Source of the DNA: an uncultured virus (IMG/VR IMGVR_UViG_2061766007_000176)
Taxonomy: Duplodnaviria; Heunggongvirae; Uroviricota; Caudoviricetes
Reading direction: 5' to 3' (one strand)
Virus record (IMG/VR): IMGVR_UViG_2061766007_000176
DNA length: 64,000 bases
The position numbers and the translations under genes are program-made. The notes below the pieces were generated by a model. It was given only the letters and a program-made list of their open reading frames with translations. It searched no databases and was not told the origin of the DNA. Below, piece by piece: positions 1-58,058 of the stretch. Position 1 is the stretch's first letter, and every line of letters begins with the position of its first letter.

Positions 1-77
1 GGGCCAGGATTTTATCCTGGCCTTATTGGCCGGCCCGCGCTTTAGTGCGCTAAAGTACTAAAGTATGATCGCATAAA

Positions 78-272
78 AGAAAGCCATCCTTTACGGGATG
101 GCACATCCGCACTTGAGGGACGTTTTCTTCAGCAGTTCGTGTCAGCGGTGCGGTTGCGATTCACTCGGTGGTGATTCGGACAGGGCCCTCCTCACCTCTG
201 AGGGTCTTACGTCGGCTACTTGTGCCTGTCGCCCCTCCGAGCGGTCTTGGGGGTTTTCCCCCCTTTGACACT
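78..272 (-). ncRNA. Putative small structured RNA
   Basis: Follows the 276-304 promoter; no RBS-linked ORF; ends in hairpin GCCATCC/GGATGGC plus a T-run (about 78-102). Confidence 0.45.
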
Positions 273-275
273 AAC

Positions 276-304
276 ATTATAACCCATTATAGATTATTTG
301 TCAA
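276..304 (-). promoter_or_regulatory. SigA/sigma70 consensus promoter (leftward)
   Basis: Reverse strand reads TTGACA-17nt-TATAAT; divergent from the promoter at 348-376. Confidence 0.85.
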
Positions 305-347
305 CCCCTTTTTTAAAAAAATTAAAAAAACTTTTTTGAAAAAACTG

Positions 348-376
348 TTGACAACCGATCCGGTTTGTGGTATTAT
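348..376 (+). promoter_or_regulatory. SigA consensus promoter
   Basis: TTGACA-17nt-TATTAT. Confidence 0.8.
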
Positions 377-517
377 AATCCTGCGAGAGGGAGAGAAACC
401 CCAACTCTCCCGAGGGACGCCCACCGCAGACAGGGGATCCAAGGGGCGCAAGCCTGGCGGTGGGAGTTCTCCCGAGAGCAAAGCGCCCAGACTTTGAAAA
501 AAAGTTTGGATGAACGC

Positions 518-546
518 TTGACAGATCCACCGGAAGGTGCTATAAT
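518..546 (+). promoter_or_regulatory. SigA consensus promoter with extended -10
   Basis: TTGACA-17nt-TATAAT with TG at -15/-14. Confidence 0.85.
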
Positions 547-549
547 AAG

Positions 550-812
550 ACCATCGAAAGGGGATGATTCCAAAGGGACGGGTGAGCGAGAGCGAGCAGG
601 TCGCGGTGGCTCGTAATCGCACAAATTGAAGCGACTGGGCGCGCCCACCGAGGCATGGGCGGTACTAAACCAGAGTCAGACTCTGGCGAGCGTACCAAGT
701 CCCACGAGGGAAGGGAGAGAGACCCGGAAATCGTGGGACGGGGTGGTAACCCCTCCAGACCCGAGGAAATGCGGGGAGCAATAGCCAAAACGGGCGCAAG
801 TGCGCCCATTTT
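550..812 (+). ncRNA. Putative structured RNA
   Basis: GC-rich hairpins (e.g. CCAGAGTC-A-GACTCTGG); terminator-like GGGCGCA/TGCGCCC followed by ATTTT; no convincing CDS. Confidence 0.45.
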
Positions 813-1047
813 CCACATCCGGGCCTGCGCGGGCCGGCTATATGTCATTCAAAATTCGCCATTACAGGCCCGATCTGGCCAATTCAACTGGCCGGCCGGC
901 CACACTTAATTCTGGCCCGTTAGAATGTGAATTACAGGCCAGAATTCAACCAGGCATCGGCCAGATAATAGGCCAGAATTATTAAGGCCGGCCACAGGCC
1001 AGGCCCGCTTTAATACGCTAAAGTATTAAAGTAGATAGATATTAAAT

Positions 1048-1200
1048 ATGCCCGCCCAATCGGACGGGTCTTACCGGTGCCACCCTCGGGCGACCTACCC
1101 TCAGTGGCTTGGGCGCTTGGTCTCGCCCGTTGAGTCCGCTTCGCGCCTGCCCGCGGACTCGGGGCTTGGGTTCCCACCGGAATCACCTCCCTTCGATGGT
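1048..1200 (-). ncRNA. Putative structured RNA
   Basis: Promoter TTGACA-17-TATACT at 1232-1204; consecutive hairpins GAGTCCGC/GCGGACTC, GGGCG/CGCCC, CCCGTCC/GGGCGGG. Confidence 0.45.
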
Positions 1201-1436
1201 TAAAGTATAGCACAGTCGCGCCGGTTTGTCAACAGTTTTTTTGAATTTTTTCAAAAAAAATTACGATCAAAATTTGCCTCTCCAGGCCCAAACTGGCCCG
1301 TCGGCATCGACCGGCCGGCCGTATGGTTCTGAAAATCGGCCTGTAGAGGCAAATTCCAACTGGCCGGCCTGCCGCCGAGTTAGTCTCGTCTAACTCTAAG
1401 GATGTAAAATTTGGTCTGACCAGATTTTACATTGTC

Positions 1437-1874
1437 TTATTTGGTCAGACCCTTGAGAACCTTCACGATGTCGGCGGGTTCGTAAGCGTTCTCACCCCAA
1501 GCCTTGCGGTTTCCTTCTTCATCATCGAACAGGATGTATCCGTTGGTAGCGGTTTTCTTATTCGTTCCGTAGGGAACAACCTTGATTTCGTTCCACTTGA
1601 CGGCGGGAAGGTGCTTGGCGAGCCAAGCGACCTTGGCTTTGGCGACCGCCTTGTGATAGGCGGGATTGTCAACCTTGGCGGTCCAAGTGATGACATTCAC
1701 GGTATAGCCGTTCTTCTGAACCTTGTTCAGCAGGCGGGCGATGTGGGCGAGATTTCCGATACCCTTAGCGATTTCGTAGGGGCGGGTCTCGCCGTTGCGG
1801 ATGGCGATCAGCCAATCAGCGACTCCGTAGAGGTCAGCGATTGTGCCATCCATGTCGAACCAGATACCCTTCAT
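1437..1874 (-). CDS. HAD-superfamily hydrolase (5'-nucleotidase-like)
   Basis: Motif I FDMDGT and C-terminal ILFDD; paralog of 8899-9348. Confidence 0.8.
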   Translation of the reverse strand: MKGIWFDMDGTIADLYGVADWLIAIRNGETRPYEIAKGIGNLAHIARLLNKVQKNGYTVNVITWTAKVDNPAYHKAVAKAKVAWLAKHLPAVKWNEIKVVPYGTNKKTATNGYILFDDEEGNRKAWGENAYEPADIVKVLKGLTK

Positions 1875-1963
1875 TCCTTAACTCCCCCTTTCTGATTATA
1901 TTATATACTATTGACACCGGATTACAATTGATTATTTGGGAAAATTTCATACCAGATTAACCA

Positions 1964-2467
1964 TCAGGCACACTGTGCTTCAAGCCAATTAATCATTTTA
2001 TTGGACGTTTTGCGAAAACGGATTGCGATATCAGTATGTTCACTATTATTACAAACCCTTGTAAACAGGGAAACAAACAGGCGAAACTCTTTTTTATTCA
2101 TTTGATATTCAGTAATCAATTCGGTTGCTCTATCCCACTCCATCCAAATAAACACTTTAGAAGGTGTATTTTTGAAGAAGGTTTTAATCTTATCTTCAGC
2201 CGAATTATACCGACCGCCAATACTCCGACCAAGACTTGCTTCAGAAGATTTAACGCTTGCCCTTTCGCTTTCAATATCAGAACCATTTTTCCAAGATGTC
2301 GCAGGATTAATATCAGTATAAATACCACGATAAGCCTTTGCGATACTTTCCAAAGTTTCACCCCTGTTTTTATATGCTTTCTGATAATTCGGACGATAAG
2401 GCGAATTGCGGTTAATTTCGGGTTCGTATGCGTAAGGCAGAGGATTTGTATAAGTTACCTTCTTCAT
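1964..2467 (-). CDS. Hypothetical protein, possibly a distant member of the 3684/5111/14187 family
   Basis: RBS GGGAG; NRGETLE...GSDI...SVK resembles NKGE.FE...GDI...QVK. Confidence 0.65.
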   Translation of the reverse strand: MKKVTYTNPLPYAYEPEINRNSPYRPNYQKAYKNRGETLESIAKAYRGIYTDINPATSWKNGSDIESERASVKSSEASLGRSIGGRYNSAEDKIKTFFKNTPSKVFIWMEWDRATELITEYQMNKKEFRLFVSLFTRVCNNSEHTDIAIRFRKTSNKMINWLEAQCA

Positions 2468-2739
2468 GGTCTTAACTCCCTTCCTTTGATAATACTATTA
2501 TAATAGCGGCATCTTCACAATACAATTGATAATATGGGAAAATTTCACACCAGATATGACATGAGCGGGCCGGCATAAAAAGGTCAAGAAAGGTCAAACG
2601 AAATTTGCCATTCTAAGCGTCTGAAAAATAATTCATCGTCTGGCCATACGATTATAATTCTTTCAGCGCCTTAGAATGGCAAATTTTGAATTTACCTTTT
2701 ATCAAATATAAATCCACTACTATATATGGTGGGAGACCC

Positions 2740-2961
2740 TTACAGGTCTCCCGCCATCTCGTAGTACCACTCAGCGAAAACCGGGTCGCGGTCGAGCAGT
2801 ACATCAAGCAGGTCGCCATCTTCGGGAGTCAGACCCTCAGCAGTGGCAATCTCGGTCATCACCGAATCAAACAGGTCAGAATCAAACAGTTCGTACCAAG
2901 CAAGGTCAAAGCGGCGGCAGTAGTCTTCGAAGAGTTCTTCCATCATTTCGCGAGTCATCAT
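2740..2961 (-). CDS. Small very acidic protein
   Basis: RBS AAAGGAAAG; D/E-rich 73 aa. Confidence 0.7.
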   Translation of the reverse strand: MMTREMMEELFEDYCRRFDLAWYELFDSDLFDSVMTEIATAEGLTPEDGDLLDVLLDRDPVFAEWYYEMAGDL

Positions 2962-3387
2962 TGTCTTTCTTTCCTTTCTTTGGGGTGGCTCTCTGTCCTC
3001 CCCGCACCATTATATTATCACAAACCGGCACAAAAAGCAACCCCTAAAATGAAATTTTTCTTTGTGAATTTTGGTAAAGTTTTCTACCAAATTATACATC
3101 ATTCAAAATTTGGCTCTACAGGCCCGATCTGGCCAGACCCATCGACCGGCCGGACGATGGATTAATTCCGGGCCTGCCTCAGAGGCAAATTTTGACGACC
3201 GGCCGGAAGGTCAAAGTCAGTCAAAGTCAAACTTTTCTGGCCCAAAGTTGTACGTACAACTGGCCAGGCCTGGCCCGCAGTTAGTCATGACTAACTTGTA
3301 CGTACAATTACTGCCGGCCCGGCGTGCTTTAGCACGCTAAAGTATTACATCGTTAAACCCACCTACATAATAGGTAGGCGGGTGAAA

Positions 3388-3683: not shown

Positions 3684-4154
3684 ATGACCACCTTCGACCG
3701 CGAAACCGCCCTGCGCCGGATGGCGCACGATTACAACGCGCTGAGCGCGTCCCATGTGTACGCTCTGGGCTTTGTCCACGCGCACGACCTGTATGTGGCT
3801 AAGCTGAGCTTCGCTGAGCTGAGCCGTTACTTCAAGCTCGACCGCGCGAGCCAGTCCCACGGCGGGATGCTGAAAATCCGCATCCGGATGACCGCCACCG
3901 CCAAAGCTGAGCTGAGCGCCAAAGCTGAGAAGCTCGGAGCTGAAACCCTGCTGACCCTCGACCCCAAGCACAACAAGGGCGAGAACTTCGAGCGGGAGCT
4001 GACCGAGCGGTGGACCGCTGAGACCTGGGTCAAGGACTCCATCCCCTTCAATGTGGCGGGTGACATTCGGGTGGATGGGATTGAGGTTCAGGTCAAGCTC
4101 GATGGGGCTGAGCTGACCAACGAAAAAATCCTCAGCAAGCTGATGGCTTGCTGA
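3684..4154 (+). CDS. Hypothetical protein, possible PD-(D/E)XK-like fold (family copy 1)
   Basis: KGENFERE...GDI...EVQVK; paralog of 5111 and 14187; own promoter TTGACG/TATAAT. Confidence 0.75.
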   Translation: MTTFDRETALRRMAHDYNALSASHVYALGFVHAHDLYVAKLSFAELSRYFKLDRASQSHGGMLKIRIRMTATAKAELSAKAEKLGAETLLTLDPKHNKGENFERELTERWTAETWVKDSIPFNVAGDIRVDGIEVQVKLDGAELTNEKILSKLMAC

Positions 4155-4222
4155 GGATGGGGTAAAAATACAACATCCCACGCAGTATAATGATTATGGA
4201 AAGAGAGAAAGGAGCTACTAAA

Positions 4223-4363
4223 ATGACTTTTCTGATTTGCTACCACGGCGAAAGCTACCACCTCGACATCGAGAGCCTCGACGAACTCCAGACCCTTGCT
4301 GACCGCTATGGTTGGGTCAAACTCGACGTCGACTTTAAGAACATGGTTATCACCATTCACTAA
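4223..4363 (+). CDS. Small hypothetical protein (46 aa)
   Basis: RBS AAAGGAG; MTFLICYHGESYHLD...; below the ORF-track cutoff. Confidence 0.65.
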   Translation: MTFLICYHGESYHLDIESLDELQTLADRYGWVKLDVDFKNMVITIH

Positions 4364-4375
4364 GGGGTGATAACC

Positions 4376-4459
4376 ATGACGACTACTGATCTCATCGCCC
4401 TGGCCCTGCCTGCCCTGTATATCATCGTGTGCTTAGTTGCCACCTTCAAACGGGGTTAA
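4376..4459 (+). CDS. Single-TM peptide (27 aa)
   Basis: RBS AAGGGG; MTTTDLIALALPALYIIVCLVATFKRG. Confidence 0.55.
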   Translation: MTTTDLIALALPALYIIVCLVATFKRG

Positions 4460-4614
4460 CGGGCCGGCCCAGGCGGCCAGTTAAAAAAATTGGCCGGCCT
4501 ATACAGGCCGGCCCGAGATTTAATAAAATTGTAACAATTTTATACTTGAAATTGTAACAACTCTTTGCTATAATAAGAGTGTCGAAAGGGACGAAAGAAA
4601 GGAAGGAAACCAAA

Positions 4615-4947
4615 ATGACTAAGACCATCGCAATCGCCACCGCCGTGACCATCGCCATTATCCTCGCTTGCTCCTGTGCTATCGCCGAAGTTCCGCAGGT
4701 GGATCGGCACACCATGCACTGCCAGGGCATGTATCCTCGGCTCGCCATCATCACCAAGCTGGATTACGAGCTGGATATCGTAACCGTAACTGACGCAGCT
4801 GGGTTCGATTGGCAGTTCGACTGCTGTGATGACTGGGTTATGGGCGACTATGTTACCATGATGATGTATGACAGCGAGACCCCCTACGAAATTGAGGACG
4901 ATGTAATAGTCCTCGCCTTCTGGGGCGGTTGGACCGCAAAAAATTAA
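4615..4947 (+). CDS. Secreted or membrane-anchored hypothetical protein
   Basis: RBS AAGGAAGG; N-terminal hydrophobic signal-like segment. Confidence 0.7.
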   Translation: MTKTIAIATAVTIAIILACSCAIAEVPQVDRHTMHCQGMYPRLAIITKLDYELDIVTVTDAAGFDWQFDCCDDWVMGDYVTMMMYDSETPYEIEDDVIVLAFWGGWTAKN

Positions 4948-5110
4948 CCTTCGGGGGGGGGGGNNNNNNNNNNNNNNNNNNNNNNNNNNNNNCTGGCCGG
5001 CCCGCAAATGTTACGAAAGTGTTACGATTAGTTCATAAATTGTTAACTTGACGGATGTACCGGATAGGTGTATAATTAAGGCACAGAAAGGGAAAGGAAG
5101 GTACTCAAGA

Positions 5111-5557
5111 ATGACTCGCAACGAAATGATCGACCGCTACAACGCTCTCTCCGCCGCCACTGCTTACATCGTTGGCTTCGTCCTCAACGGACTCCTGTAC
5201 TACACCATGTCCGCCCACATTGCGGATCAGTTCCTCAAGTTTGACCACATGGCTTCCAAACGTGGCGGTTGGGCAAAGATCCGTGTTCGGCTCTCTTCCG
5301 CAGATCGCAAGGCTCTTGTGGAGTGCGGACAGGCGGTGCTGATCGGCACTGCGGATCTCCTCACCGATGCGAAGTACAACAAGGGCGAGTGCTTCGAACG
5401 GGTAATCACCGAATCCCTCACGGGCGAACAGTGGGTGAAGGACTCCGTTCCGTTCAATGTCGCAGGAGATATCACCCTCAACGGCGAACAAGTACAGATC
5501 AAGTTTGACGGGGCGGAACTCACCAACGAAAAACTCCTCATGCGGATCTCCGCATGA
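5111..5557 (+). CDS. Hypothetical protein (family copy 2)
   Basis: MTRNEMI...; near-identical to 14187-14630. Confidence 0.8.
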   Translation: MTRNEMIDRYNALSAATAYIVGFVLNGLLYYTMSAHIADQFLKFDHMASKRGGWAKIRVRLSSADRKALVECGQAVLIGTADLLTDAKYNKGECFERVITESLTGEQWVKDSVPFNVAGDITLNGEQVQIKFDGAELTNEKLLMRISA

Positions 5558-5626
5558 GGATGCTGAAAAAATGTCGCATCCTATTTGATACTATATATAC
5601 AGAAAGAGGAAAGGAAGGTACTTAAG

Positions 5627-5821
5627 ATGGGTTACTTCGATGATTGGTTTGAGGGCGAGATGGAGTTGGACATTGACGAACTGTCTTACGGCGACAAGAT
5701 CCCCGATCCCTTTGACGGTGACACCGCGATCGACTCTTCCTTTGAGGAAGATTACTTCGACAACATCGACCTCTATCGGTTCAACACCGACCCGCACATG
5801 CGGATGTATAGGGATGAATAA
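5627..5821 (+). CDS. Small very acidic protein
   Basis: RBS AAGGAAGG; MGYFDDWFEGEMELDIDE... Confidence 0.7.
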   Translation: MGYFDDWFEGEMELDIDELSYGDKIPDPFDGDTAIDSSFEEDYFDNIDLYRFNTDPHMRMYRDE

Positions 5822-5964
5822 TTATTCATCCCGCCCGCGGGCCGGCCAGCCGAATTGTTACGAAACTGTAACAAATAGTTAATAAAAACTTAACAAATTT
5901 ATACTTGATTTTGTAACAAATTTGCGGTATAATACTTACAGAAAGAGGAAAGGAAGGTAACCCA

Positions 5965-6126
5965 ATGATGAACGTTAAGAATCTCCCCACCACCCACAAA
6001 GAATTTGTTGTCGCCCGCGCGGTCGAAGGTGACCTCTGGTACTGGGGTTCTTGGGATTCCGAAGAGACCGCCCACACTGTCGCCAATGACATCAACGGCA
6101 TTGTGGTCTATGAAGAGGAGGAGTAA
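5965..6126 (+). CDS. Small hypothetical protein (53 aa)
   Basis: Promoter plus RBS; MMNVKNLPTTHKEFVVARAVEGDLWYWGSW... Confidence 0.65.
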   Translation: MMNVKNLPTTHKEFVVARAVEGDLWYWGSWDSEETAHTVANDINGIVVYEEEE

Positions 6127-6129
6127 GCC

Positions 6130-6285
6130 ATGACTAACAACCAACTGTGTAACATCCTCGGAGTTATAGGTTGCGTAATTGCCTTCTTCGGTATGGGGTT
6201 AGTATTCTTCGGAATAACCTCTGCTGCTTGGGCAGTTGCCTTCGGTATTCTACTTAGTGGCATCGGGTTAGTTAATTACGACTAA
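6130..6285 (+). CDS. Small two-TM membrane protein
   Basis: RBS GGAGGAG; hydrophobic 51 aa. Confidence 0.6.
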   Translation: MTNNQLCNILGVIGCVIAFFGMGLVFFGITSAAWAVAFGILLSGIGLVNYD

Positions 6286-6392
6286 CCCAGCGGGCCGGCC
6301 CGCCAAAATTGTAATAAAATTGTAACAAATTTATACTTGATTTCGTAACAACTTTCTGCTATAATTAAACCATCGAAAGGGAGGAATGAAGA

Positions 6393-6542
6393 ATGACCCG
6401 CACCTACAAGAAGTCCGCAAGCTATCCGCACCCCACCAACTACCCGCACCACAACCGCCACACCAACTCCCGCGTCCTGCGGAAGCGCATGGATCGGCGT
6501 GACCGCCACCGCCTCAACCGCTTCTCTATGGAGGCGGACTAA
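6393..6542 (+). CDS. Basic His/Arg-rich peptide (copy 1)
   Basis: MTRTYKKSASYPHPTNYPHHNRH...; paralog at 14943-15095 with synonymous changes. Confidence 0.75.
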   Translation: MTRTYKKSASYPHPTNYPHHNRHTNSRVLRKRMDRRDRHRLNRFSMEAD

Positions 6543-6647
6543 GGCGGATGCGAGCTGGGAGCTGGCAAAAAAATTGTGAGCTGGGCTTGACAAACTGAGC
6601 AAGCCGTGATATAATGACACTGTAAGAAAGAGAAGGAGGATCTCAAG

Positions 6648-6785
6648 ATGGATTACGAACTGTACGATGGTGACTACGAATACGAAGATGGCGACTACCT
6701 CGATGACGAACCCGATTACGATTGGGGTTACAACGAGGACGAGGGTTTCGATCCCTACGCAGGTTGCTACACTTGGGACTGCTGA
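6648..6785 (+). CDS. Extremely acidic D/E/Y-rich peptide (copy 1)
   Basis: RBS AAGGAGG; ends GFDPYAGCYTWDC; paralog at 15196-15354. Confidence 0.75.
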   Translation: MDYELYDGDYEYEDGDYLDDEPDYDWGYNEDEGFDPYAGCYTWDC

Positions 6786-6794
6786 GAAGGAGGA

Positions 6795-7079
6795 ATGACC
6801 ATGACTGCTACTGTTACTTGCCACTGCCCTCTGTGCGGAAAAGTTTCCTTTGTCACTTGTGATGAGGACGCATACGATCGGTATGTGACCACCAGCACCC
6901 CGATTCAGGAGATCTTCCCCGATATGGATCTCCACACTCGGGAACTCCTCATCTCGGGGATGTGCCTTGATTGTCAGGCTTCCTTCTTCGTGGAAGATGA
7001 CGATTGCGATGGGAAATGCGATGTCTGTTGTGACTTCGATTGCCCCTCTAATGCCTCGCTCTTTGCTCCGCAGGAGTGA
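6795..7079 (+). CDS. Cys-rich zinc-binding protein (copy 1)
   Basis: CPLCG, CLDC and C-terminal Cys cluster; paralog at 15368-15632. Confidence 0.75.
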   Translation: MTMTATVTCHCPLCGKVSFVTCDEDAYDRYVTTSTPIQEIFPDMDLHTRELLISGMCLDCQASFFVEDDDCDGKCDVCCDFDCPSNASLFAPQE

Positions 7080-7193
7080 GCGGGCCGGCCAGCCGAAAAG
7101 TTAACAAAATTGTAACAAAATTATGCTTGATTTTGTAACAAATCTATGGTATTATAATAATGTCGAAAGGGACAAGAAAGGAAGGAAAGAACA

Positions 7194-7463
7194 ATGACAC
7201 GGAAATTCAAAGACCACCCCTACGCACAGGCTTGCGTTATCGAAACCCCGAACTACAAGGCTCTCCAGTCCTACAACACCATTGTTGTTGAGATTGACCA
7301 CGAAGGTTGGCTCCATGTCAACGGTCTGTATAGCATGACCACCATCCGCCATATAGGCTGGTTCATGCGGGAGCTGGGCTTCACGTACCAGCTGGCAAAG
7401 GCTCTGTATGTTGATAACAAGGAAATGAACATCTACACGGGAGAGGTGATTGATTGTGACTAA
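7194..7463 (+). CDS. Hypothetical protein
   Basis: Promoter and RBS; 89 aa. Confidence 0.7.
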   Translation: MTRKFKDHPYAQACVIETPNYKALQSYNTIVVEIDHEGWLHVNGLYSMTTIRHIGWFMRELGFTYQLAKALYVDNKEMNIYTGEVIDCD

Positions 7464-7611
7464 AGAAGAGTTTACAGAAGAATATAAAATCAGTATCTAT
7501 GCCCACAGGTGGTGGAATTTTGATGAACAACCGCCAGAAAAATATAAACAACAGGTTAAACAATACCTAATAGACCATCCTGAAGAATTCAAAGGCGCAG
7601 GTCCACAGTGA
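7456..7611 (+). CDS. Small hypothetical protein
   Basis: RBS GAGGTG, GTG start overlapping the previous stop. Confidence 0.5.
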   Translation: MTKEEFTEEYKISIYAHRWWNFDEQPPEKYKQQVKQYLIDHPEEFKGAGPQ

Positions 7612-7969
7612 CCTCGCGCCGGCCCGCTGATTTAACAAAATCTTAACACTTTTGACCTTGTTTTGTAACATATTTATGGTATAATAATCATGTCGAAAGG
7701 GAAGGGCGAGCCGAGAGGCGGACTCGAACGAGAAACGAAAAAAAGTTTCAGAAACCCCTTGACAAACCCCACAAAGTGTGGTACAATAAAAATGTCGGAA
7801 GGGAAGAGCGACTTCCGAAAGAACAGTGGGCAACGGACTCGCTCCCCTCGCAGTCGCAAAGCGATGTTGCCCAACTGAACGAAAAAAATGCTTGACATTC
7901 CCCACAAAATGTGGTAGAATGAATATGAAAAGAGGAAGGACACCTCACAAACCAGAAAGGCAAAAGGCT

Positions 7970-8305: not shown

Positions 8306-8449
8306 TGCCTTGCGACCCTCGGGGGGGGGGGGGNNNNNNNNNNNNNNNNNNNNNNCACTAACTCGCGGGCCGGCCCGCCATGTATTATTTGGGAAAAAAC
8401 TTTGCCATATTACTAATTGTTTTTCGCCAAATATCTGATATAATATAAT

Positions 8450-8790: not shown

Positions 8791-8898
8791 ATCTTCGGGC
8801 CGGCCCGTAATTTAACACTTTTGTAACAAATTTGTGCTTGACTTTTAACAATTTCTTTGCTATAATAATTATGGAAAGAGGAAAGGAGAGTACGAACA

Positions 8899-11292: not shown

Positions 11293-11444
11293 AATATCAC
11301 CTCAAAAATTTTTGATCTATAACCCTCTATATTATATGTGATACAAAAGCATCAAAAACCATATAAATTTTTCTTGACAATTTATTTTTTTTGATATATA
11401 ATAGTTACAGAAACAGAAGGAAAACTGTGTAAACCAGAGAGGAG

Positions 11445-12149
11445 ATGCCTATGGAAAAGGATAAATTTTTAGTGTTTGATACTGAGGTGTGTAATTGCCC
11501 AATGGTTGATGGGCAGTTGGATGTCGCAAATGGTCAGTTTTATGACCTTGGTTTACAAATCGTTGACAAAGATGGTTACGTTTATGATGAGTATTCCATT
11601 GTCAATGGTGATGTGTTCTGGGGTATGCCCGAAGCCATGAAAGAAGCGTACTTCGCAGACAAGCGACCGCAATATGTTGCGGATATTCTCGCAGGTAAAC
11701 GCAAGGTAATGAACACTTGGCAGATTTATAAACTGATTCGGCAGTTGTGTGCCGAGTGGAACGTAAAAGCGTGCGTTGCTCATAATGCGAGGTTCGACAT
11801 TAAAGTAACTAATGCGACCCTTCGGTATCAGACGAAAAGCAAGCGGAGATGGTTCTTCCCTTATGAAATGCCCATTTGGGACACCATGAAAATGGCGAAT
11901 GATACCATCTGTAAGCAGAAGCGTTACATTGAATTTTGTAAGCAGAATGGTTACATGACTAACCACGCAACTCCGCAAGTCCGCAAGACCGCAGAAGTCC
12001 TTTGGCGGTATATCACAGACGATGTAACTTTTGAAGAGGAGCATACGGGGCTTGCTGATGTAACTATTGAAGCACAGATTTTCGCCGAGTGTATCCGTCA
12101 GCATAAGAAAATGGAGCGTTTGGCAGAATTGGACGAAGGGGATATGTAA
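11445..12149 (+). CDS. DEDDh 3'-5' exonuclease
   Basis: ExoI VFDTE, ExoII AHNARFD, ExoIII EHTGLAD. Confidence 0.85.
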   Translation: MPMEKDKFLVFDTEVCNCPMVDGQLDVANGQFYDLGLQIVDKDGYVYDEYSIVNGDVFWGMPEAMKEAYFADKRPQYVADILAGKRKVMNTWQIYKLIRQLCAEWNVKACVAHNARFDIKVTNATLRYQTKSKRRWFFPYEMPIWDTMKMANDTICKQKRYIEFCKQNGYMTNHATPQVRKTAEVLWRYITDDVTFEEEHTGLADVTIEAQIFAECIRQHKKMERLAELDEGDM

Positions 12150-12278
12150 TATCCCCTTCGTCCCATGTAACCGCCATGTAACCGCGCCGGCCAGCGGATT
12201 TAATACTTTTGTAACAATTTTGTACTTGATTTGTAATATGATTTCTGCTATAATAATAGTGAAAGGAAGGTACAGAGT

Positions 12279-12821
12279 ATGCGGAATTACATTGAGAGAG
12301 CAAAGGATTTCATCGCCGAGATTTTCCCCTATATTGGGGAGTGGAATGACCCGTGGAACATTGGGTATGATGTTGCTGACTTCAACAAGCAGTGCCACCG
12401 CAAAGTTATTATGAAGCACGGCATTGCCCGTATTGCCCTTATCACTTCGGATTATGTGGTCAAGTATGACTTTGATAAGGATGAAGTCGAAGAAGTCGGC
12501 GGTTGCGAAGCCGAAGTCGAACTGTACGCCGAAGCAGTAAAAGACGGATTCAGCTATCTGTTCGCCGAGATTACCCATTATCCCTATCGTGGTCATGACT
12601 TTTACATCATGCCCCGCATCCGTGGCATCAATGGAGATAGTTGGGACCATGCCGATGTGTATATGACCGATGAGGAAAACGAGTGGTGCGACCGCCACCA
12701 TCTGTCTGACCTTCATTGTAACAACTATGGCTTCCGCAAGGGCAAGGTGTGTATCATCGACTACGCTTGTCACTTGTCCGAAGAATCTGAATCGGATTCT
12801 GAATCCTCAAGTTGGAGTTAA
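12279..12821 (+). CDS. Minimal protein-kinase-like fold protein
   Basis: VVK lysine, E..E helix, catalytic DLHCNN, metal-binding IIDY. Confidence 0.65.
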   Translation: MRNYIERAKDFIAEIFPYIGEWNDPWNIGYDVADFNKQCHRKVIMKHGIARIALITSDYVVKYDFDKDEVEEVGGCEAEVELYAEAVKDGFSYLFAEITHYPYRGHDFYIMPRIRGINGDSWDHADVYMTDEENEWCDRHHLSDLHCNNYGFRKGKVCIIDYACHLSEESESDSESSSWS

Positions 12822-13095
12822 CTCCAACTTTGGGCCGGCCCGCTCAATTGTATACAGTATACTTTGAAAATAATGCTTGACTTTAAGTAAAAATTCTGAT
12901 ATACTATATATGTCGAGAGGGAGAGGATACCGAGTGCCGAACTCCGATCAGCATGATCGCTCCCACCTTCTGACCGAAACTGATTAAAATCGGAGAAAAA
13001 AGTTTCGGAAACCTCTTGACAAAAACCAAAATCCATGATATACTAAATACGTAAAAAGGAGAAGGAAACTCCACAAACCAGAAAGGATAACCACT

Positions 13096-13428
13096 ATGAA
13101 GAAATCCACTCTGACCGCTATCGTTGCTCTGCTGAATGGCGAAACCGTTGACACCGAGGCTCTGAAAGTCGAAGTCGAAACCGAACTGAACAAGGGCGCG
13201 GAGAAAGCCCAGGCTAATCGCGACCTGTATGCGTCTGCCCACGATGTGGTGATTGACGCTCTGTCCAAGGTTACCTCTCCTGTGACCATTGGCGAACTGT
13301 ATGACGAAATCGCCAATGACCTCCCCGAGGGCATGACCAAGGGTAAGGTTCAGTATGCGGTGACTCGCCTGTGGGTAGACGAGATTGCCAAGACCGAGGG
13401 TAAGGTTAACACCTACTCCCTGCGGTAA
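13096..13428 (+). CDS. Putative winged-helix protein (copy 2)
   Basis: Paralog of 7970-8305. Confidence 0.75.
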   Translation: MKKSTLTAIVALLNGETVDTEALKVEVETELNKGAEKAQANRDLYASAHDVVIDALSKVTSPVTIGELYDEIANDLPEGMTKGKVQYAVTRLWVDEIAKTEGKVNTYSLR

Positions 13429-14186
13429 TCCTCTAAAGGGATAGGGTTCGCCCTATCGCCCTCCCTGCCTGTATGGGAGGGCTTTCCTTATTTCATTTTA
13501 CTTTAGCGCTTTAGCGTAATGAAGCGGGCCGGCACATGACAATCCTAAAACCGCACCGGCCCGCGATTGTATACAGTATTCTTCAAATTTAGGTATTGAC
13601 TTTTAGTAAAATTTCTGATATACTATAATTGTTCCAAGGGGAGAGGATAGTGCGAGCAGTATTCTCCTTGCTAACGCTCACTGACGAGTGAGATTCAGAA
13701 CTAAAAAATAAAAAAAGTTCTGAAAAAACCCTTGACAACAAGCAAATCCTGTGCTATAATAAGGATGTAAGGAGAGAAGAGCGATGGAGTTCCGTTAGGG
13801 CAACAACACTGTCACGGGGTGAGCCACTCCACCGNNNNNNNNNNGGGAAGCAAGGTGATAACTTGAGCGGAGTAAACGAAGGTCAACAGACCGTGGCGGA
13901 AACGCAACAAAGGGAAACCTCCCCTTGGGGGAAAACCCCTTGACATTAAGCACAAAATGTGCTATAATAGGGGTAAGAGAGAAGAGCGGTGGAGAACCGT
14001 TATGGCACAAAGTTGTTCGGGACGAGCCACTTCACCGCTCTTCAAAAAACACTTGACATTAAGCACAAAATGTGCTATAATGTATATGAAAAGAGGAGAA
14101 GNNNNNNNNNNGAAAAAAGTGTTGACAAACCGCACCGGATGTGATAATATATAGTCACAGAGAGGAAGAAAGGAAGGTAACCCACC

Positions 14187-14630
14187 ATGACACGCAACGA
14201 AATGATCGCCCGCTACAACGCACTGTCCGCCGCCACCGCCTACATCATCGGCTTTGTCCTCAACGGCATGATCTACTACACCATGTCCGCCCACATCGCA
14301 GACGAGTTCCTCAAGTTCGATCGGATGTCCTCCAAGCGGGGCGGTTGGGCAAAGATCCGCGTGAAGCTCAGCTCCGCCGATCGGAAAGCTCTGGTCGAGC
14401 TTGGCAAAGCGGTTCTCCTCGGATCAGCTGAACTGCTTCTCGATGAGAAGTACAACAAGGGCGAGTGCTTCGAACGGGTCATCACCGAAACCCTTACGGG
14501 CGAAACTTGGGTGAAAGATTCCGTCCCCTTCAATGTAGCGGGTGACATCACGCTGAACGGTGAGCAGGTGCAGATCAAATTCGACGGGGCAGAACTCACC
14601 AATGAAAGAACTCTCATGCGGATCGCATGA
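14187..14630 (+). CDS. Hypothetical protein (family copy 3)
   Basis: Near-identical to 5111-5557. Confidence 0.8.
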   Translation: MTRNEMIARYNALSAATAYIIGFVLNGMIYYTMSAHIADEFLKFDRMSSKRGGWAKIRVKLSSADRKALVELGKAVLLGSAELLLDEKYNKGECFERVITETLTGETWVKDSVPFNVAGDITLNGEQVQIKFDGAELTNERTLMRIA

Positions 14631-14681
14631 GAGTTTGACAGGGGATAAAATTCGTGATATAATATAGAAGGGTGAAAGAAG

Positions 14682-14825
14682 ATGGAAAAAATCGTGATGA
14701 TGACAGGATTTGGAATTATGTATCTGTGCTTTCTGTGCATGATTTGTATTGGTCCACAGTTCCTTACAGGTGTGCTTGTGGGCATGGCAATTACTATATT
14801 TGGTTATTATTTCCTCGATGAATAA
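14682..14825 (+). CDS. Small two-TM membrane protein
   Basis: Own promoter; hydrophobic 47 aa. Confidence 0.55.
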   Translation: MEKIVMMTGFGIMYLCFLCMICIGPQFLTGVLVGMAITIFGYYFLDE

Positions 14826-14942
14826 GCGCCGGCCGGCTAAAGTTCAGCCGGCCGCCAAATGTTACGAAAACTTAATAAATTTATCTATTGATTTGTAACA
14901 AATTATATGCTATAATAAGACCATAGAAAGGGAGGATGAAAG

Positions 14943-15095
14943 ATGACCCGCACCTACAAGAAGTCCGCAAGCTACCCGCATCCCACCAATTATCCCCACC
15001 ACAACCGCCACACGAACCACCGCGGACTCCGCAAGCGGATGGATCGGCGCGACCGCCGCAGGCTCAACCGCGAGGCGGCGAGCTGGGGCGCCTAA
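14943..15095 (+). CDS. Basic His/Arg-rich peptide (copy 2)
   Basis: Paralog of 6393-6542. Confidence 0.75.
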   Translation: MTRTYKKSASYPHPTNYPHHNRHTNHRGLRKRMDRRDRRRLNREAASWGA

Positions 15096-15195
15096 TGCGA
15101 GCTGGGAGCTAGCAAAAAAATTGCGAGCTGGGGCTTGACAAACTACGCAAGCTATGATATAATCAACCTGTAAGAAAGAGAAGGAGGATTTGAAG

Positions 15196-15354
15196 ATGGA
15201 TATGCACGAATACGAGGACAACTACTGGGACGATTACGATGCGTCCATGCCCGATCCCGAGGATGATTACCCCGAGGATGACTACTACGAGGATTGGGAT
15301 AACCTCGACATGGGCTTTGACCCCTACATGGGTTGTTACTCTGACGACTGCTAA
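15196..15354 (+). CDS. Extremely acidic peptide (copy 2)
   Basis: Ends GFDPYMGCYSDDC. Confidence 0.75.
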   Translation: MDMHEYEDNYWDDYDASMPDPEDDYPEDDYYEDWDNLDMGFDPYMGCYSDDC

Positions 15355-15367
15355 GGAGGAATGAATT

Positions 15368-15632
15368 ATGACAACTGTTATCTGCAACTGCCCGCTGTGC
15401 GGAAGGGTTTCCGAGGTCAACTGCGATGAGGTGGCATATTTTAAGTATGTAACNNNNNNNNNNNNNNNNNNNNNNNNNNNNNNNNNNNNNNNNNNNNNNN
15501 NNNNNNNNNNNNNNNNNNNNNNNNNNNNNNTTCTTTGTTGAGGAAGACGATGACGGGTGCGATGGCGAATGCGACGTCTGTTGCGATTTTGATTGCCCCT
15601 CCAATGCCTCACTCTTTACACCGCAGGAGTGA
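15368..15632 (+). CDS. Cys-rich zinc-binding protein (copy 2, spans an N gap)
   Basis: Both ends match 6795-7079. Confidence 0.7.
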
Positions 15633-15732
15633 GCGGGNNNNNNNNNNAACCCTTGACAACCACCCCAAAATCTGATATAATAAATACGAACAAAGGGAAC
15701 GACACCCTACAAACGAGAAAGGATTCACCACC

Positions 15733-16062
15733 ATGAAGAAAGCCACTTTCGAAGCCATCAAGACCGCTCTGACCAACTTCGGCTATACCGATACTGATGT
15801 CCTCGCCGAACTCGACAAGGAAATCAACAAGGGTGCCGAGCAGAAGGCGAAGAACGCCGAAGCCTACGATGCCATCCATGACATCGTGATGGGTGCCCTG
15901 ACCTCTGCTCCTGCGACTGTCGCGGAGATTTGGGAAGCCATCGAGAATGAAGTTCCCGAAGGCATCACCAAGGGCAAGGTTCAGTATGCCCTGACCCACC
16001 TCTGGGGCGATGAAATCGTCAAGGTGGAAGGCAAGCCGAATGGCTATCGGAAAGCGGTCTAA
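15733..16062 (+). CDS. Putative winged-helix protein (copy 3)
   Basis: TKGKVQYALTHLW...EGKPNGY. Confidence 0.75.
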   Translation: MKKATFEAIKTALTNFGYTDTDVLAELDKEINKGAEQKAKNAEAYDAIHDIVMGALTSAPATVAEIWEAIENEVPEGITKGKVQYALTHLWGDEIVKVEGKPNGYRKAV

Positions 16063-16134
16063 TCCGCTTTCCCCTCACCACGAGGGTTTCCGAGGGTCTT
16101 TCAGTGTGGTTAAACAACATAAGCCCTCCTTTAT

Positions 16135-16237
16135 GGGACGAAATGATGACAGTGGCAAGTCATCCGCCGAAGCGAAAGCAATAGCGATAGGTGTGCAAAA
16201 TGCCTATGGATGGGTTCAATTCCCACTCGTTCCACCA
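16135..16237 (+). ncRNA. tRNA-like RNA with alanine identity (G3.U70, A73, encoded CCA) and a non-canonical core
   Basis: Acceptor GGGACGA/TCGTTCC plus ACCA; T-arm GGG-TTCAATT-CCC; 6-bp D-like stem; two central arms with no canonical anticodon loop. Confidence 0.65.
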
Positions 16238-16238
16238 T

Positions 16239-16311
16239 ACCCCACTAGCTTAATTGGTAGAGCAACTGACTCTTAATCAGTAGGTTCAGGGTTCAAGTCC
16301 CTGGTGGAGTA
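16239..16311 (+). tRNA. tRNA-Lys(CTT)
   Basis: Cloverleaf: ACTGA-CTCTTAA-TCAGT anticodon arm, CAGGG-TTCAAGT-CCCTG T arm; one acceptor mismatch; CCA not encoded. Confidence 0.9.
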
Positions 16312-16527
16312 CACATCCCCTATTCCCTTCTTTCCTTTCTAGCCCTGCCTTACGGCAGGGCGCTTTCTTTATTCACATACTTTAATCCGCTAAAGCGGGC
16401 CGGTATATTCGTGCCGGCCCGCCAGTTGTACGTACAAATTTTCAAAATTTTAATTTCAAAATTTACTTGACAAAAATCAAATTTTAGATTATACTATATA
16501 TGTAATAAGAAAGGAATGGTGATTGAG

Positions 16528-16875
16528 ATGCCGAAACTGACTAAAACCGCAATCGACAAGGAACTCCGTACCCGTGTGCTTGATAGCATCTACAACGCAA
16601 AAGATGACCTCGACTTTCATGCTATTAATGAGCGTCAGTTGGGTCTTTTGCTAACTGACCTTAATGACCATCAGCGGTATGTCCGCATCAGCGTAATCGT
16701 TGCTGAGGAACGGGAAGATATCTCTGCCGAAGAACTGATGGCGATGGAGTGCGAAGCCTTCAATGCTAAACAGGCAGAAAAAGCCGAAAAGGCAAAGAAG
16801 AAAGAAGCCAAAATCGCCAAGGATAAGGCTCGGCGTGAAGCCGAAGCCAAAGCAAAGGAAGGCGAACAGGCATGA
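16528..16875 (+). CDS. Hypothetical protein, related to 9637-10113
   Basis: MPKLTKTA... and a KKEAKIAKD tail. Confidence 0.75.
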   Translation: MPKLTKTAIDKELRTRVLDSIYNAKDDLDFHAINERQLGLLLTDLNDHQRYVRISVIVAEEREDISAEELMAMECEAFNAKQAEKAEKAKKKEAKIAKDKARREAEAKAKEGEQA

Positions 16876-17299
16876 AAAAGTTCTGGGTTCACTTCGATGG
16901 TTACTGTGTAGTTGAAGGAGAGAACGAAGAACAAGCCGAATGGAGCTTCTTTGAGCATATTTACCCACCTGTAGATGAACCAGTATATAATGAAGTCTAT
17001 ACCATTACCAAGATTGAAGAAGTGGAGGAACAGAAATAATGCGTATCGGCAAGATCATTTTTGACACTGATAACATGACCTATGAAGAGGTCGACCAGTT
17101 GGTACAGGAACTGCGGGAAGTCCGCAAGCGGAAGGGCGAGGCAAGGGATTGTAAAATCCGTATGCGGAATATGGTTGAGTCATCCCTTGATCAGGGCTTC
17201 CGCTATATCAACCGCTATACGGGCGAACTGTTCAACGCAGACGAATGGTTTGTCTATGACGAAAGACAGAATTGTACTCACGGCGAAGAGGTAGATTAA
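16872..17299 (+). CDS. Two small hypothetical proteins (16872-17039; 17039-17299)
   Basis: Translationally coupled ATGA/TAATG overlaps. Confidence 0.65.
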
Positions 17300-17394
17300 T
17301 CTACCTCTTTTGTCCGTACAACTCGCGCCGGCGCAAGTTATGCTTGACTAACTCATTCATATTTGATATAATAATAGCGAAAGGAAGGGATAAT

Positions 17395-17811
17395 ATGGAT
17401 AAGATTAAACTGATTCGTGACTTCGCAAGCCTTGTCGCAGGTGAGCGTGTAATTATTCCTCGCAAGCGTGATTGTTGGAGTTTAAGCATGGCAGACGCAA
17501 AACCGCGTCTGATTCTCCCGCCCGACCCCGACCAAAATGATGAAGAAGATAAAGCCTTTCGCAAAGACTTTGTTCAGCGTTGCCTTATGGCAAGGGGATT
17601 TGCCAATGTAACTCTTTCTATCCTTCATGAAATCGGTCATCATTTCAATCGTGAAGCATATATATTCAGCGATGTGAATGAAGATGAATATGAATCCCAT
17701 TTCACCCTCCCGTATGAAATAGTAGCAACCGATTGGGCGATTGCGTGGCTTCAAGACCCTAAACACCGTAAACAGGCTAAAGCCTTTGAAAGACAATACT
17801 TTCAAGGCTAA
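17395..17811 (+). CDS. Zinc metallopeptidase-like protein
   Basis: HExxH motif in SILHEIGHH. Confidence 0.65.
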   Translation: MDKIKLIRDFASLVAGERVIIPRKRDCWSLSMADAKPRLILPPDPDQNDEEDKAFRKDFVQRCLMARGFANVTLSILHEIGHHFNREAYIFSDVNEDEYESHFTLPYEIVATDWAIAWLQDPKHRKQAKAFERQYFQG

Positions 17812-17906
17812 CGCGCCGGCCAGAATTAACAGAATTGTAATAATTTTGTAGTTGACTTTTAACATTTATTCTGCTATAATAAGAGTGTGAAAGGGAGGAA
17901 TGAAGT

Positions 17907-19246
17907 ATGAAGAAAGTTAAAGTGAAGTCCAATGTTGAAATCTTTATGGGTCAGCGGAAGTCTTGGGGTAATGTAAATCCCGTGACCAAAGTGATTCCCG
18001 ACAAGCGGTTTAAGAAACCGAAGTACAAGGGAAAGGAATGGGATTAATGAAAGTGATTCCTCGTTATAAACTTAATTGGGTAACTGAAGAAGAACCTGAC
18101 GAAGAATGGCTTCCTGGCGAACAGATTCCTCACTTCTGTTATTGTAATAACAAGACAGAATTGGAAAATCGTCATCAGCAAGCCGTGACCGAAGGTGGTT
18201 ATAATTTCTCTGTTGATGTGTGGTATTGGAATCAATATATGGCTTCTAATATTGGGAGGGATTGGGAATGAAATTTATACAAAAAACTACCTATGACCTT
18301 GGAAGCCTTGACTACTATCGTGATGAACTCGGATGGAATGTTGATTCCATCGAAGATGTGGTCGAACGCATTAAGGATTGGAATGATGAGGAATTGCGTA
18401 CACTTTTGGGATATGCTACTGACTATGAATGTTGGGCAGAAGAAACCGAAGTATAAAGGAAAGGAGTGGGACTAATGAACCTTAATTTCGCATTGTTCAA
18501 TCTGAATGTGGCTTTGCCGTGGTGGGCATACATACTGATTATCGCATCGCCCTTTATTCTTTCGGCAATTATTTCCCTTGTAGTTTACTTTATCAACCGC
18601 TATTTTTAAGGAGGTAACCGCTATGATGAACTATTGCCCCGTATGTAAATCGTCTCTCATTTGGATATCCAGCGATGAGGATACCAATGGCAACGAACTG
18701 TTTTACACCAGTACTTCCGAGTGTACAGAATGTGGTCTGGTAGTACATGAAACCGAAACTTACACCCGCACCAAGGTCGAAGCAACTTTCGAATTTAAGG
18801 AGGAAGACTAATGGATATTTATCCGAAGTGCCCTTATTGTAAATGCGACATTGACTACCATGATAAACTCAGTGATGACTATGACGATGCTTACTATTTT
18901 GTAAGTTGGTCTGGTTTTTGCCCTCGGTGTCAGCGCACCTTCTCGTTTTCTGAAACATTTAAACTTGTAGAAAGGCGGTTCCTTGATGAAAAAGATTCTG
19001 ATTAAACGTCTCGTATACTCCGATGGTCAGGGTAATACCCTCATCGGCGCAGAGGAATATAGCGGTCATCTCGACGACTTCAATATTCTTGGGGCCATCC
19101 ATGAAGTAGGTAAAACCGCGTGGATCGGGCAGTCCCTTTGGGCACTCCATCGCGGTGTTCCTGCGTATCGTATCACCGTAGGTAAATTCTATCAGTATCA
19201 GAAGCGGTGGTATGAAAACGTTTTTGATGCGCTTCGGCGCATCTAA
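17907..19246 (+). CDS. Operon of seven small hypothetical proteins (17907-18047, 18047-18271, 18268-18456, 18475-18609, 18623-18811, 18811-19005, 18986-19246)
   Basis: RBS-linked, overlapping start/stop codons; two carry CxxC pairs, one is a TM peptide. Confidence 0.65.
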
Positions 19247-19346
19247 AACGGGCCGGCCGCAATTTAATACTTTCTTAACAATTTTCCTATTGACTTTTAC
19301 CATAAATCTGTTATAATATATATAGAAAAGGAAAGGAGATTGCCCC

Positions 19347-19821
19347 ATGAACTACGATTTCGACCTTAACCAAGCCATTGAAGATTTCCACGCGATGTGT
19401 GAGTGGTACGGCGACTACCCTCTGAAATACGAACATTACATTGAATATGCGGTACACGCACAACTCGATTACTTCCCCACCGATTTCCGCTTTCAGGATG
19501 CGGTTCGGCGGTTGAAACTCGCCCTTGGTGGGTATCAGTTGAAAATGGAGTTAGATTAATATGGAAAAAGTAAAATCTTTCTTCAGTATTGAAATGCCCT
19601 ACCGCTTTGAATGGAATGACTTGCGGTGCGGGATTACCATCCTCAACGTAATACTCATTATGTTATTTGGACTCCAAGTATCGTGGTTCGGTCTTGCGGT
19701 CGCAGTATTCGGCGTGTGTAAAGACTTCTCACAGCATCGACATATCAATGATATACTCATGCATATGTCAAGCGTGGTCCTTAACATATACTTCCTTTCC
19801 CTTCTCTATAGCGGGACTTGA
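19347..19821 (+). CDS. Two hypothetical proteins (19347-19559; membrane protein 19561-19821)
   Basis: Own promoter and RBS; terminator hairpin AGCGGGAC/GTCCCGCT. Confidence 0.7.
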
Positions 19822-20057
19822 CGTCCCGCTTATTTTCTGGCCGGCCATACTCATACCGGCCTGCCCAACGCCTTATACTCCCCCACGCTAACATAATACC
19901 ATAAATCCCGCAAGATGTCAAGCCCCTACAAATATTAAATTTCTGTTACAATTTCATTACAATTCTATTACATCGGCGTCGCCTTATACCACAAGGCGTG
20001 ACGCCTATTTTGTTACCCCTATATACCACGTACTGGCCCGCGCCTTATACGCACTGG

Positions 20058-58053: not shown

Positions 58054-58058
58054 GTTAA

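Follow-up and report, generated by a model that had tools for sequence, protein, structure and literature searches.

Promoter-early stem-loop (PeSL) cassettes have been described in the T4-type phages RB49/phi1, where they make up a hyperplastic ORFan region in which each unit combines a stem-loop with a strong host-type promoter that is preceded by AT-rich DNA, and in which units are gained and lost via short homologies between regulatory elements without a dedicated recombinase; the accessible part of that report leaves it open whether a protein reads such junctions (PMC2839356). The 64,000-nucleotide stretch analyzed here (the window), which corresponds to bases 62,001–126,000 of the 133,352-bp record G000 of an uncultured virus (IMG/VR IMGVR_UViG_2061766007_000176; estimated to be 71% complete), contains the center and right arm of an island of small genes whose cassette layout itself is of the known PeSL type, and the junctions between its units are marked by GCCGGC palindromes, many of them in the form GGCCGGCC. 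The island differs from the PeSL region in that an invariant 4-bp core, CCGG, is purged from the genes, stands in selected promoter spacers and replaces U-tracts, and in that it is tied to a phage-encoded protein family with a predicted nuclease fold, whereas PeSL stem-loops terminate transcription by themselves and, as far as the accessible part of that report goes, their cognate protein is not known. We consider it quite likely that a member of this family, a 147-aa protein, is the reader of the CCGG sites. That the sites at gene joints and promoters are also nicked or cut by it is our preferred explanation, but a tentative one, whose chance we would put a little short of even.

The pairing of a repeated site with a phage-encoded reader bears comparison with other systems. 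In the SPBRE/MrpR system of Bacillus phage SPbeta, according to the accessible part of its description, a repeated intergenic promoter element is likewise read by a phage protein with the fold of a DNA-cleaving enzyme, but the fold of MrpR is that of a tyrosine recombinase that has lost catalysis and maintains lysogeny (PMC10516654), while a predicted restriction fold, retention of the putative catalytic residues and a 4-bp core characterize the present system; the terminase of G000 also matches the SPbeta YonF group. T5-like phages, again judging from the accessible part of the source, share with it a distinct early region that treats restriction sites differently, early destruction of host DNA and site-specific nicks made in their own genome, but their first-step region is a 9.7-kb terminal repeat that is necessarily free of restriction sites (PMC10644984), whereas here the sites are enriched at the joints and a long repeat lacks support. 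A structure of a T5 endonuclease with GCGC exists (PDB 9qgx). Our literature search, whose coverage excluded most subscription papers, retrieved no paper on T5 SciA and no phage CCGG endonuclease that acts on its own promoters.

GCCGGC occurs 33 times in the window against 6.74 expected, and 18 of these copies are GGCCGGCC, for which 100 dinucleotide shuffles gave 0.24 ± 0.49; positions 28 to 19,846 enclose all of them. Across the whole record, all 29 GGCCGGCC and 50 of the 55 GCCGGC fall inside one GC-rich island, where 29 of 29 and 49 of 50, respectively, lie outside genes, and an order-3 Markov model of the island non-coding DNA expects 4.0 and 15.6 of them. The first-pass annotation of the window had proposed testing for such enrichment over a Markov background, and it had located the array well: 22 of the 23 positions it listed are within 3 bp of a GCCGGC, the exception, 13,556, being ACCGGC with the CCGG core only, and the sites do fade past ~20.3 kb as it described. 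The extent it gave, 27–19,870, needs correction because the island is ~27 kb long, extends leftward beyond the window by 6.6 kb and consists of two divergent arms, a minus-strand left arm (G000:C1 ~55,400–62,000, from promoter and gene calls) and a plus-strand right arm reaching ~20.3 kb. Of the record's 72 near-consensus sigmaA-type promoters, 53 fall between -6.6 and +23.4 kb, and every unit has one or more of them; the units contain one to seven small genes or non-coding stretches, as had been proposed, but the supposed operator slot between site and -35 is filled by several different motifs, i.e., 11-bp TTAACA/TGTAAC repeats, TGTATACA, TGTACGTACA and GTTAG-N6-CTAAC. The junctional position of the sites likewise holds except for those at 28–3,313, which belong to a central divergence zone without simple junctions. 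Several sites do lie 2–8 bp past a stop codon, but the hairpin ahead of them mostly lacks the U-tract of a terminator, and the spacing to the next -35, given as 35–60 bp for many sites, is 11–77 bp in the right arm, with many sites at 31–37 bp. At the type junction (6,262–6,365, plus strand), a stop codon within a U-tract-less hairpin is followed by a 14-bp palindrome around GCCGGC (6,294), 11-bp TGTAAC-type repeats, a weak -35 (6,337) and an extended -10; at another (12,805–12,905, plus strand), a hairpin abuts the site (12,834) and is followed by a TGTATACA box and a promoter at 12,877. The observation is therefore confirmed, and its first interpretation is partly supported: our results agree with a modular, probably early or host-takeover island, in which relatives have gained, lost and rearranged units, and with a junction motif that has the behavior of a site recognized by a protein, but not with an integron-like recombination site, as discussed below.

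Comparison of G000 with 27 related virus records showed that the conserved unit is CCGG and that GGCCGGCC is the form of one lineage, because the flanks of the core differ between lineages. The promoter island was found in all relatives with enough sequence, except G020, which failed the promoter density rule. Nineteen records including G000 carry GCCGGC at junctions, with lineage-specific outer flanks (GG..CC, CG..CG or TG..CA), and in more distant phages CCCGGG is the top intergenic hexamer (L110, L113, L115, L117, L118 and L121), so that both flanks change together, as would be predicted if the site were a dyad in DNA whose CCGG core is fixed. Eight records without GCCGGC (islands of G012, G013, G016–G019, G021 and G026, e.g., L046, L041 and L049) have a palindrome of 21–23 bp, TTAG(G/A)TGT-N3-ACA(C/T)CTAA, and in 69 of 79 cases it stands 10 bp ahead of the -35. 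Two core-gene trees, one of them a quick tree only, interleave the two island types, with 5 and 6 changes versus shuffled-label means of 5.3 and 6.3, i.e., no fewer than with shuffled labels, and the islands are therefore exchanged horizontally.

The core is purged from the genes that it separates. Of the 30 CCGG in the interval 4,400–20,000, 28 are intergenic and 2 lie in a GIY-YIG/NUMOD homing endonuclease gene with TAG=Gln codons (10,474–11,292, minus strand, assigned by domain match), the sole gene of the interval to contain the word, which is consistent with its recent insertion. The 35 native right-arm genes (9,468 nt) contain none against 32 expected, the minimum in 500 synonymous-codon shuffles being 22. 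When called genes with a homolog were counted across records, near-duplicate records being excluded, CCGG was the most depleted of all 4-mers in the island genes of 15 motif-bearing records (89 versus 330 expected), while the ratio of observed to expected was 0.78 in their flanking core genes and 1.15 in the island genes of 7 motif-less records. GGCC, GATC, TCGA and CTAG are also low in island genes, but in both island types, and hence their avoidance is not motif-specific.

The protein that accompanies the motif was found by clustering 1,979 called proteins, among which one family, of 147–156 aa and with one to four copies per record, occurs in all 19 motif-bearing records and in none of the 9 others; among records found via an unrelated border gene, the distribution is 8 of 8 versus 0 of 9. 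Genes of the family open the right arm and end the left arm. In G000 the first right-arm gene encodes a 156-aa paralog (3,684–4,154, plus strand; -35 at 3,622), a 148-aa paralog follows (5,111–5,557, plus strand; -35 at 5,048), the 147-aa paralog used for folding lies at 14,187–14,630 (plus strand), and a fourth lies left of the window (G000:C1 56,154–56,603, minus strand). CCGG stands between -35 and -10 in the promoters of the first two (at 3,632 and 5,060) and, at 14,135, in the promoter nearest to the third, which was read from the sequence at 14,120–14,148, a more distant promoter having been chosen by the promoter script. The same holds for 37 of 40 promoters of the family, compared with 58 of 539 promoters of the major arm and 111 of 223 of the minor arm in motif-bearing records, 1 of 191 promoters in motif-less records, and 0 of 51 and 0 of 40 for other frequent island families. 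In a wider, overlapping set of 177 distinct sequences, 122 of the 148 family genes with a promoter call have a spacer CCGG. The position of the CCGG within the spacer varies, and the pattern is that of a putative negative autoregulation. Tandem TTATCCACA/TGTGGATAA, which we take to be a DnaA-box pattern, was seen directly upstream of promoters at L011:7,290–7,340 and L012:9,880–9,935, the latter being the promoter of a 147-aa family gene.

The 147-aa protein has no family in Pfam, PHROGs, PDB-sequence or INPHARED searches, and its own family comprises 569 clusters at 50% identity. All 138 sequences compared (29–86% identity) have G92, E96, D120 and K131, and 98% of them have Q129; E96, D120 and K131 form an acidic-acidic-(D/E/Q)xK motif, by which they are likely catalytic residues, and QxK also occurs in HinP1I. 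An embedding search, useful as a lead only, pointed to the ThaI, SmaI, Bsp6I and PvuII families (best 0.91). Two related phages have natural homologs with reversed halves (L117:7109–7507 and L010:5820–6284), whose relationship to the family is indicated by hhalign (93%, E = 2.5e-7; other half, E = 7.5e-5), and E, D and K are invariant also in 21 such permutants; the permutant gene of L010 likewise has CCGG in its promoter spacer. The window protein was modeled with a pLDDT of 97.7 and the permutant with 91.7. Among 48,161 chains, the permutant model matched HhaI best (Z 6.2, 108 residues aligned, rmsd 3.4), followed by NhoI (6.1), HinP1I and I-Ssp6803I (both 5.3), MspI (4.2) and then PvuII, MutH and Hjc, and we take all of ranks 1–15, judging by their titles, to be nucleases of the restriction-endonuclease fold. 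The 147-aa protein is thus predicted to have a circularly permuted PD-(D/E)xK fold of the restriction-endonuclease type. HhaI/HinP1I/MspI-type enzymes recognize 4-bp GC palindromes, and the site of MspI is CCGG. The family would therefore share with HhaI, HinP1I, MspI and ThaI the fold predicted for the permutant, the E...D...QxK motif and a 4-bp GC palindrome, but it differs from them in being small (133–156 aa), circularly permuted, multicopy and phage-encoded, and from type II restriction enzymes in that no C5 methyltransferase was found and that the sites are concentrated in the phage's own regulatory DNA. In L127, L128 and L129, distant homologs have a changed loop near a conserved S-x-x-x-GG segment. 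The junctions of L127 carry CCCGT/ACGGG, and ACGG is avoided in the genes of L128 (0 versus 11), which might reflect a shift in specificity.

The arrangement of hairpins and sites bears on what the protein does there. Of 117 sites located within 25 nt past a stop codon, 87 have a hairpin that ends within 12 nt of the site, whereas shuffles and 324 coding controls both give 8%, and TTTT is present at 31 of these 117 near-stop sites versus 72 of 93 distant ones. A hairpin is found at 104 of 124 site junctions, and 61 of the 104 are U-poor (at most 2 T in the next 8 nt), compared with 6 of 76 in motif-less relatives, which have U-rich terminators. The paucity of U-tracts at near-stop sites suggests that the CCGG site occupies the place of the U-tract. 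A bound roadblock would halt the polymerase before the hairpin had formed, and this geometry, together with the invariance of the putative catalytic residues, favors cleavage over a roadblock. If so, host RNA polymerase would first transcribe the 147-aa family genes, and their product would then attack CCGG and degrade the host DNA. Cutting at the spacer CCGG would silence the promoters of the family itself and of the left arm, while right-arm transcripts would gain a defined 3' end just past a protecting hairpin by run-off at the break, and each unit would keep, past the break, a promoter of its own. Sparing of the core genome would require timing, single-strand nicking with repair, flank preference or modification. 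That DNA breaks at pre-placed CCGG end transcripts in this way and shut off the nuclease and the first-wave genes irreversibly, the same enzyme shredding the host chromosome, would amount to regulation by programmed self-restriction and is a bolder supposition than cutting as such, and we hold it as only one of several possibilities.

Several findings weigh against cleavage, and some of them against the assignment of the reader. Structure searches with the window protein's own model gave no match above Z 2.8, a failure for which the natural permutants account; the Z scores of 4–6 obtained with the permutant are middling by the search tool's own note, and Foldseek with the permutant model gave nothing under E 0.001 and weak rows only, Eco15I being first (E 0.13). 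In spite of the middling scores, the ranking of the permutant is coherent and agrees with the sequence motif. Moreover, 11 of the 19 motif-bearing records were found with the 147-aa protein itself, several being near-duplicates, and gene and motif travel in one island, so their co-occurrence may be linkage. At about 9 of the 32 loci with distant homologs that were inspected, a CCGG-centered intergenic hexamer is not clearly seen, and the depletion of GCCGGC as such in called island genes is mild (15 versus 22.5). The core contains 96 CCGG in 105 kb, including the DNA polymerase, ribonucleotide reductase and tape-measure genes, and a C5 methyltransferase (PF00145) was detected in none of 5 records, 3 of them complete, a search that did not extend to the N4/N6 families. 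The terminase is closest to those of phages such as Kirov (29% identity), which have 284-bp repeats, and a sacrificial duplicate of the island is therefore unsupported; no end repeat is present in the 133,352-bp, 71% complete record of G000. Lastly, the distance between site and -35 follows an 11-bp period (n = 225, R 0.34, the related genomes not being independent), and a perfect TTGACA is found downstream of sites in 150 of 226 cases versus 328 of 390, i.e., -35 boxes are weaker after sites. Phasing and weaker -35 boxes suit a bound activator better than a cut. Nicking, rather than full cleavage, would reconcile much of the evidence on both sides.

The last of these points leads to the rival that survives best, although we regard it as rather unlikely: the same protein might bind CCGG without cutting, as a pre-early-to-early switch in which an enzyme fold is reused as in SPbeta MrpR. 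It would then repress the promoters with a spacer CCGG and activate or insulate those with a phased upstream GCCGGC, whose centers lie near -51, -61, -72 and -83, presumably class I activator positions. The weaker -35 boxes downstream of sites agree with this idea, as do the fixed 10-bp distance from the -35 of the different palindrome in motif-less relatives (69 of 79) and the absence of lethal breaks in the core that it implies, and MrpR, as far as its description was accessible, offers a precedent (PMC10516654). The precedent is imperfect because the catalytic residues of MrpR are lost, whereas all 138 sequences retain E96, D120 and K131. In addition, hairpins that end 0–12 nt ahead of the site are too near for a roadblock, and a 4-bp site is too frequent for a selective regulator.

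It is improbable, in our view, that CCGG is instead read by a host factor, either a restriction/methylation enzyme or a transcription factor, with the phage protein as a linked countermeasure or as something unrelated. The avoidance of GGCC, GATC, TCGA and CTAG in island genes of both types is a usual sign of host restriction, and other motifs of the island resemble boxes of host regulators. TGTWAH-N5-TGTWAH, which we assume to be a WalR/OmpR-type pattern, was found by pattern search 9 times in the island and 0 times in the rest of the record. Restriction would account for the purge from genes, but not for the strict enrichment at junctions; between the sister genomes G025 and G026, motif and gene change together, and it is specifically the promoters of the 147-aa family that CCGG marks. 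TGNCGAA, presumably a Spo0A-box pattern, occurs 21 times in the island versus 19 times in the remainder, often right behind a -10 (window 4,550–14,930), and possibly indicates sporulation-linked control.

The first-pass annotation had likened the palindrome to the recombination site of an integron, and such a dedicated site for cassette shuffling, possibly operating via compatible ends after cleavage, is now very doubtful. Units are indeed reordered, gained and lost, and gene order is scrambled among relatives; homology often begins at a site and extends across the promoter and gene that follow it; of 424 alignment ends, 52 are no more than 15 bp away from a site, mostly at module 5' ends, compared with 5.1% of positions; and distant pairs break slightly more often at site intervals (0.89 versus 0.83). 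A conserved motif by itself anchors alignment ends, however, and shuffling is equally extensive in motif-less relatives. For the most closely related pairs, adjacencies of genes are broken in 80 of 163 site intervals, 72 of 131 promoter-only intervals and 41 of 91 that contain neither, so the excess of breakpoints at palindromes that the annotation foresaw is not seen. Among 24 clean cassette indels between close motif-bearing sequences, a list that counts one event twice, 3 cross at CCGG, one of them at an exact GCCGGC, whereas 12 cross in promoter/A-tract micro-homologies and 15 have a micro-homology of at least 8 bp; among 12 events at stricter identity, 1 end lies within 5 bp of CCGG. Crossovers in an integron occur at a fixed point of the repeated site, its promoterless cassettes are read from one promoter and an integrase stands beside the array, whereas here crossovers mostly lie off CCGG, every unit is served by a promoter of its own (53 near-consensus promoters within 30 kb), and no integrase or recombinase family was detected by Pfam and PHROGs in 46 island and border proteins, which do not include the left-arm genes and most of the core; for these reasons, the array is not considered an integron. 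The attC site of integrons is 57–141 bp long with R/L boxes; the junction motif spans 4–14 bp. A recombination site would also leave the promoter-spacer CCGG unexplained. Shuffling is more likely a separate process of the PeSL kind, i.e., short-homology recombination between promoters; as in PeSL regions, strong host-sigma promoters preceded by AT-rich DNA drive ORFans in a variable part of the genome. Assembled contigs of four sequencing runs cover 30 of 30 bins of positions 1–20,000, in which joints, among them any left by excised mini-circles, are inseparable from those of related phages in the same samples. Equally remote is the idea that the site acts in RNA, an endoribonuclease cleaving transcripts at CCGG behind a protecting hairpin, because, although the hairpin-then-site geometry and the coding purge fit RNA processing equally, a promoter does not transcribe the CCGG in its own spacer and the symmetric flank swaps and structural matches to DNA endonucleases point to double-stranded DNA. 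An RNA tetraloop reading of the site was rejected since its flanks show no site-by-site co-variation. The ram centromere-like site of RacA has the 14-bp consensus TGNCGCCGGCGNCA, and this identity was also rejected, the record containing 0 matches to it.

Other features of the island deserve mention. Its center and right arm (1–20,340) stand out by base composition (~47% versus 34% GC) and promoter calls. A repeat search revealed nine copies of a 65-bp promoter, D1, downstream of sites (4,517–19,325, plus strand), most of which carry TTAACA/TGTAAC direct repeats of 11-bp period overlapping the -35. The central divergence zone (830–3,210) contains GGCC/CCGG-rich quasi-palindromic elements of ~85–110 bp (~850–1,000; 1,269–1,355; 2,601–2,686; 3,100–3,205), with three further copies left of the window (G000:C1 58,780–62,030), ~seven in all; they sit at the divergence point near the GC-skew switch and are candidates for an origin, a genome end or an entry signal. 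The right border (20,040–20,340) has 18 AGCTG/CAGCT words in 300 bp, similar clusters (13–20 words per 400 bp) occur at the island borders of several relatives, and an inward-facing promoter at 19,921 (minus strand) closes the right arm. The block 3,684–7,800 is duplicated at 14,187–15,632 with ~80% identity, including the 147-aa gene, an Arg/His-rich 50-aa gene, an acidic 45–52-aa gene and a Cys-rich gene, and assembly gaps (N) occur near it. Promoter-driven non-coding stretches with hairpins lie at 400–830, 8,450–8,790, 13,620–14,050 and 16,060–16,240; an Rfam scan found only tRNAs and cow-rumen-4, with no match above the gathering score for the non-coding units, and the stretch 16,060–16,240, directly ahead of tRNA-Lys, has a weak tmRNA-model match (E 0.0009). 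Three paralogs of a 110-aa family with a weak DUF6958 match (7,970; 13,096; 15,733; together 7,970–16,062, plus strand) were rejected as a motif-specific factor because the family occurs in both island types. A 108-aa family occurs only in the motif-less group, in which most records also encode, at the border of the island, a 200-aa protein with a D...ExK motif that is missing from the available sequence of G021 and G026. Profile comparison of this 200-aa family with the 147-aa family found no homology (0.7% and 1.9%), so a role as its counterpart lacks support.

G000 represents a large tailed phage, probably of Firmicutes, because portal, terminase, DNA polymerase and NrdD genes were identified in it and its terminase shares 29–35% identity with the terminases of Geobacillus E3, Kirov, PBC2, 949 and members of the YonF group. 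For most of the record, reading TAG as Gln lifts the coding density from 0.3–0.8 to 0.9–1.0, and one of its tRNAs has the anticodon CTA. In-frame TAG occurs in 0 of the 35 native right-arm genes, which fits the early expression in recoded phages proposed in the accessible part of a preprint (10.1101/2021.08.26.457843), and the island genes are, judging from sequence features, probably early. The source may be cattle gut, as the closest-matching runs are labeled bovine gut metagenome; five matches in binned genomes (labeled Acutalibacteraceae, Bacilli, Erysipelotrichaceae and Clostridia) look like phage contigs. At window 62,928–62,990 and 63,367–63,459 and at G000:C1 127,741–132,305 lie a cow-rumen-4 RNA, an amber-reading tRNA, a PAPS-reductase gene and two probable glycosyltransferase-like genes, the latter called by eye and without a PHROG match; the glycosyltransferase-like and PAPS-reductase genes might confer a DNA modification that could shield the core.

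The present analysis names a candidate reader pair, the 147-aa protein and CCGG, and what appears to be new is the CCGG core, its purge from genes with a motif-less control group, the marks on the family's own promoters, the replacement of U-tracts and the predicted permuted restriction fold. If the protein cuts, a principle of gene control in which DNA breaks replace terminators and repressors, which we have not met in the literature searched, would emerge together with a family of very small permuted restriction enzymes, and such self-cleavage, if true, would be categorically new. If it only binds, a restriction fold would have been turned into a transcription factor. Either way, the pair would account for the hoarding of these sites between early genes, and their purge from the genes themselves, in a widespread group of ruminant-gut phages.

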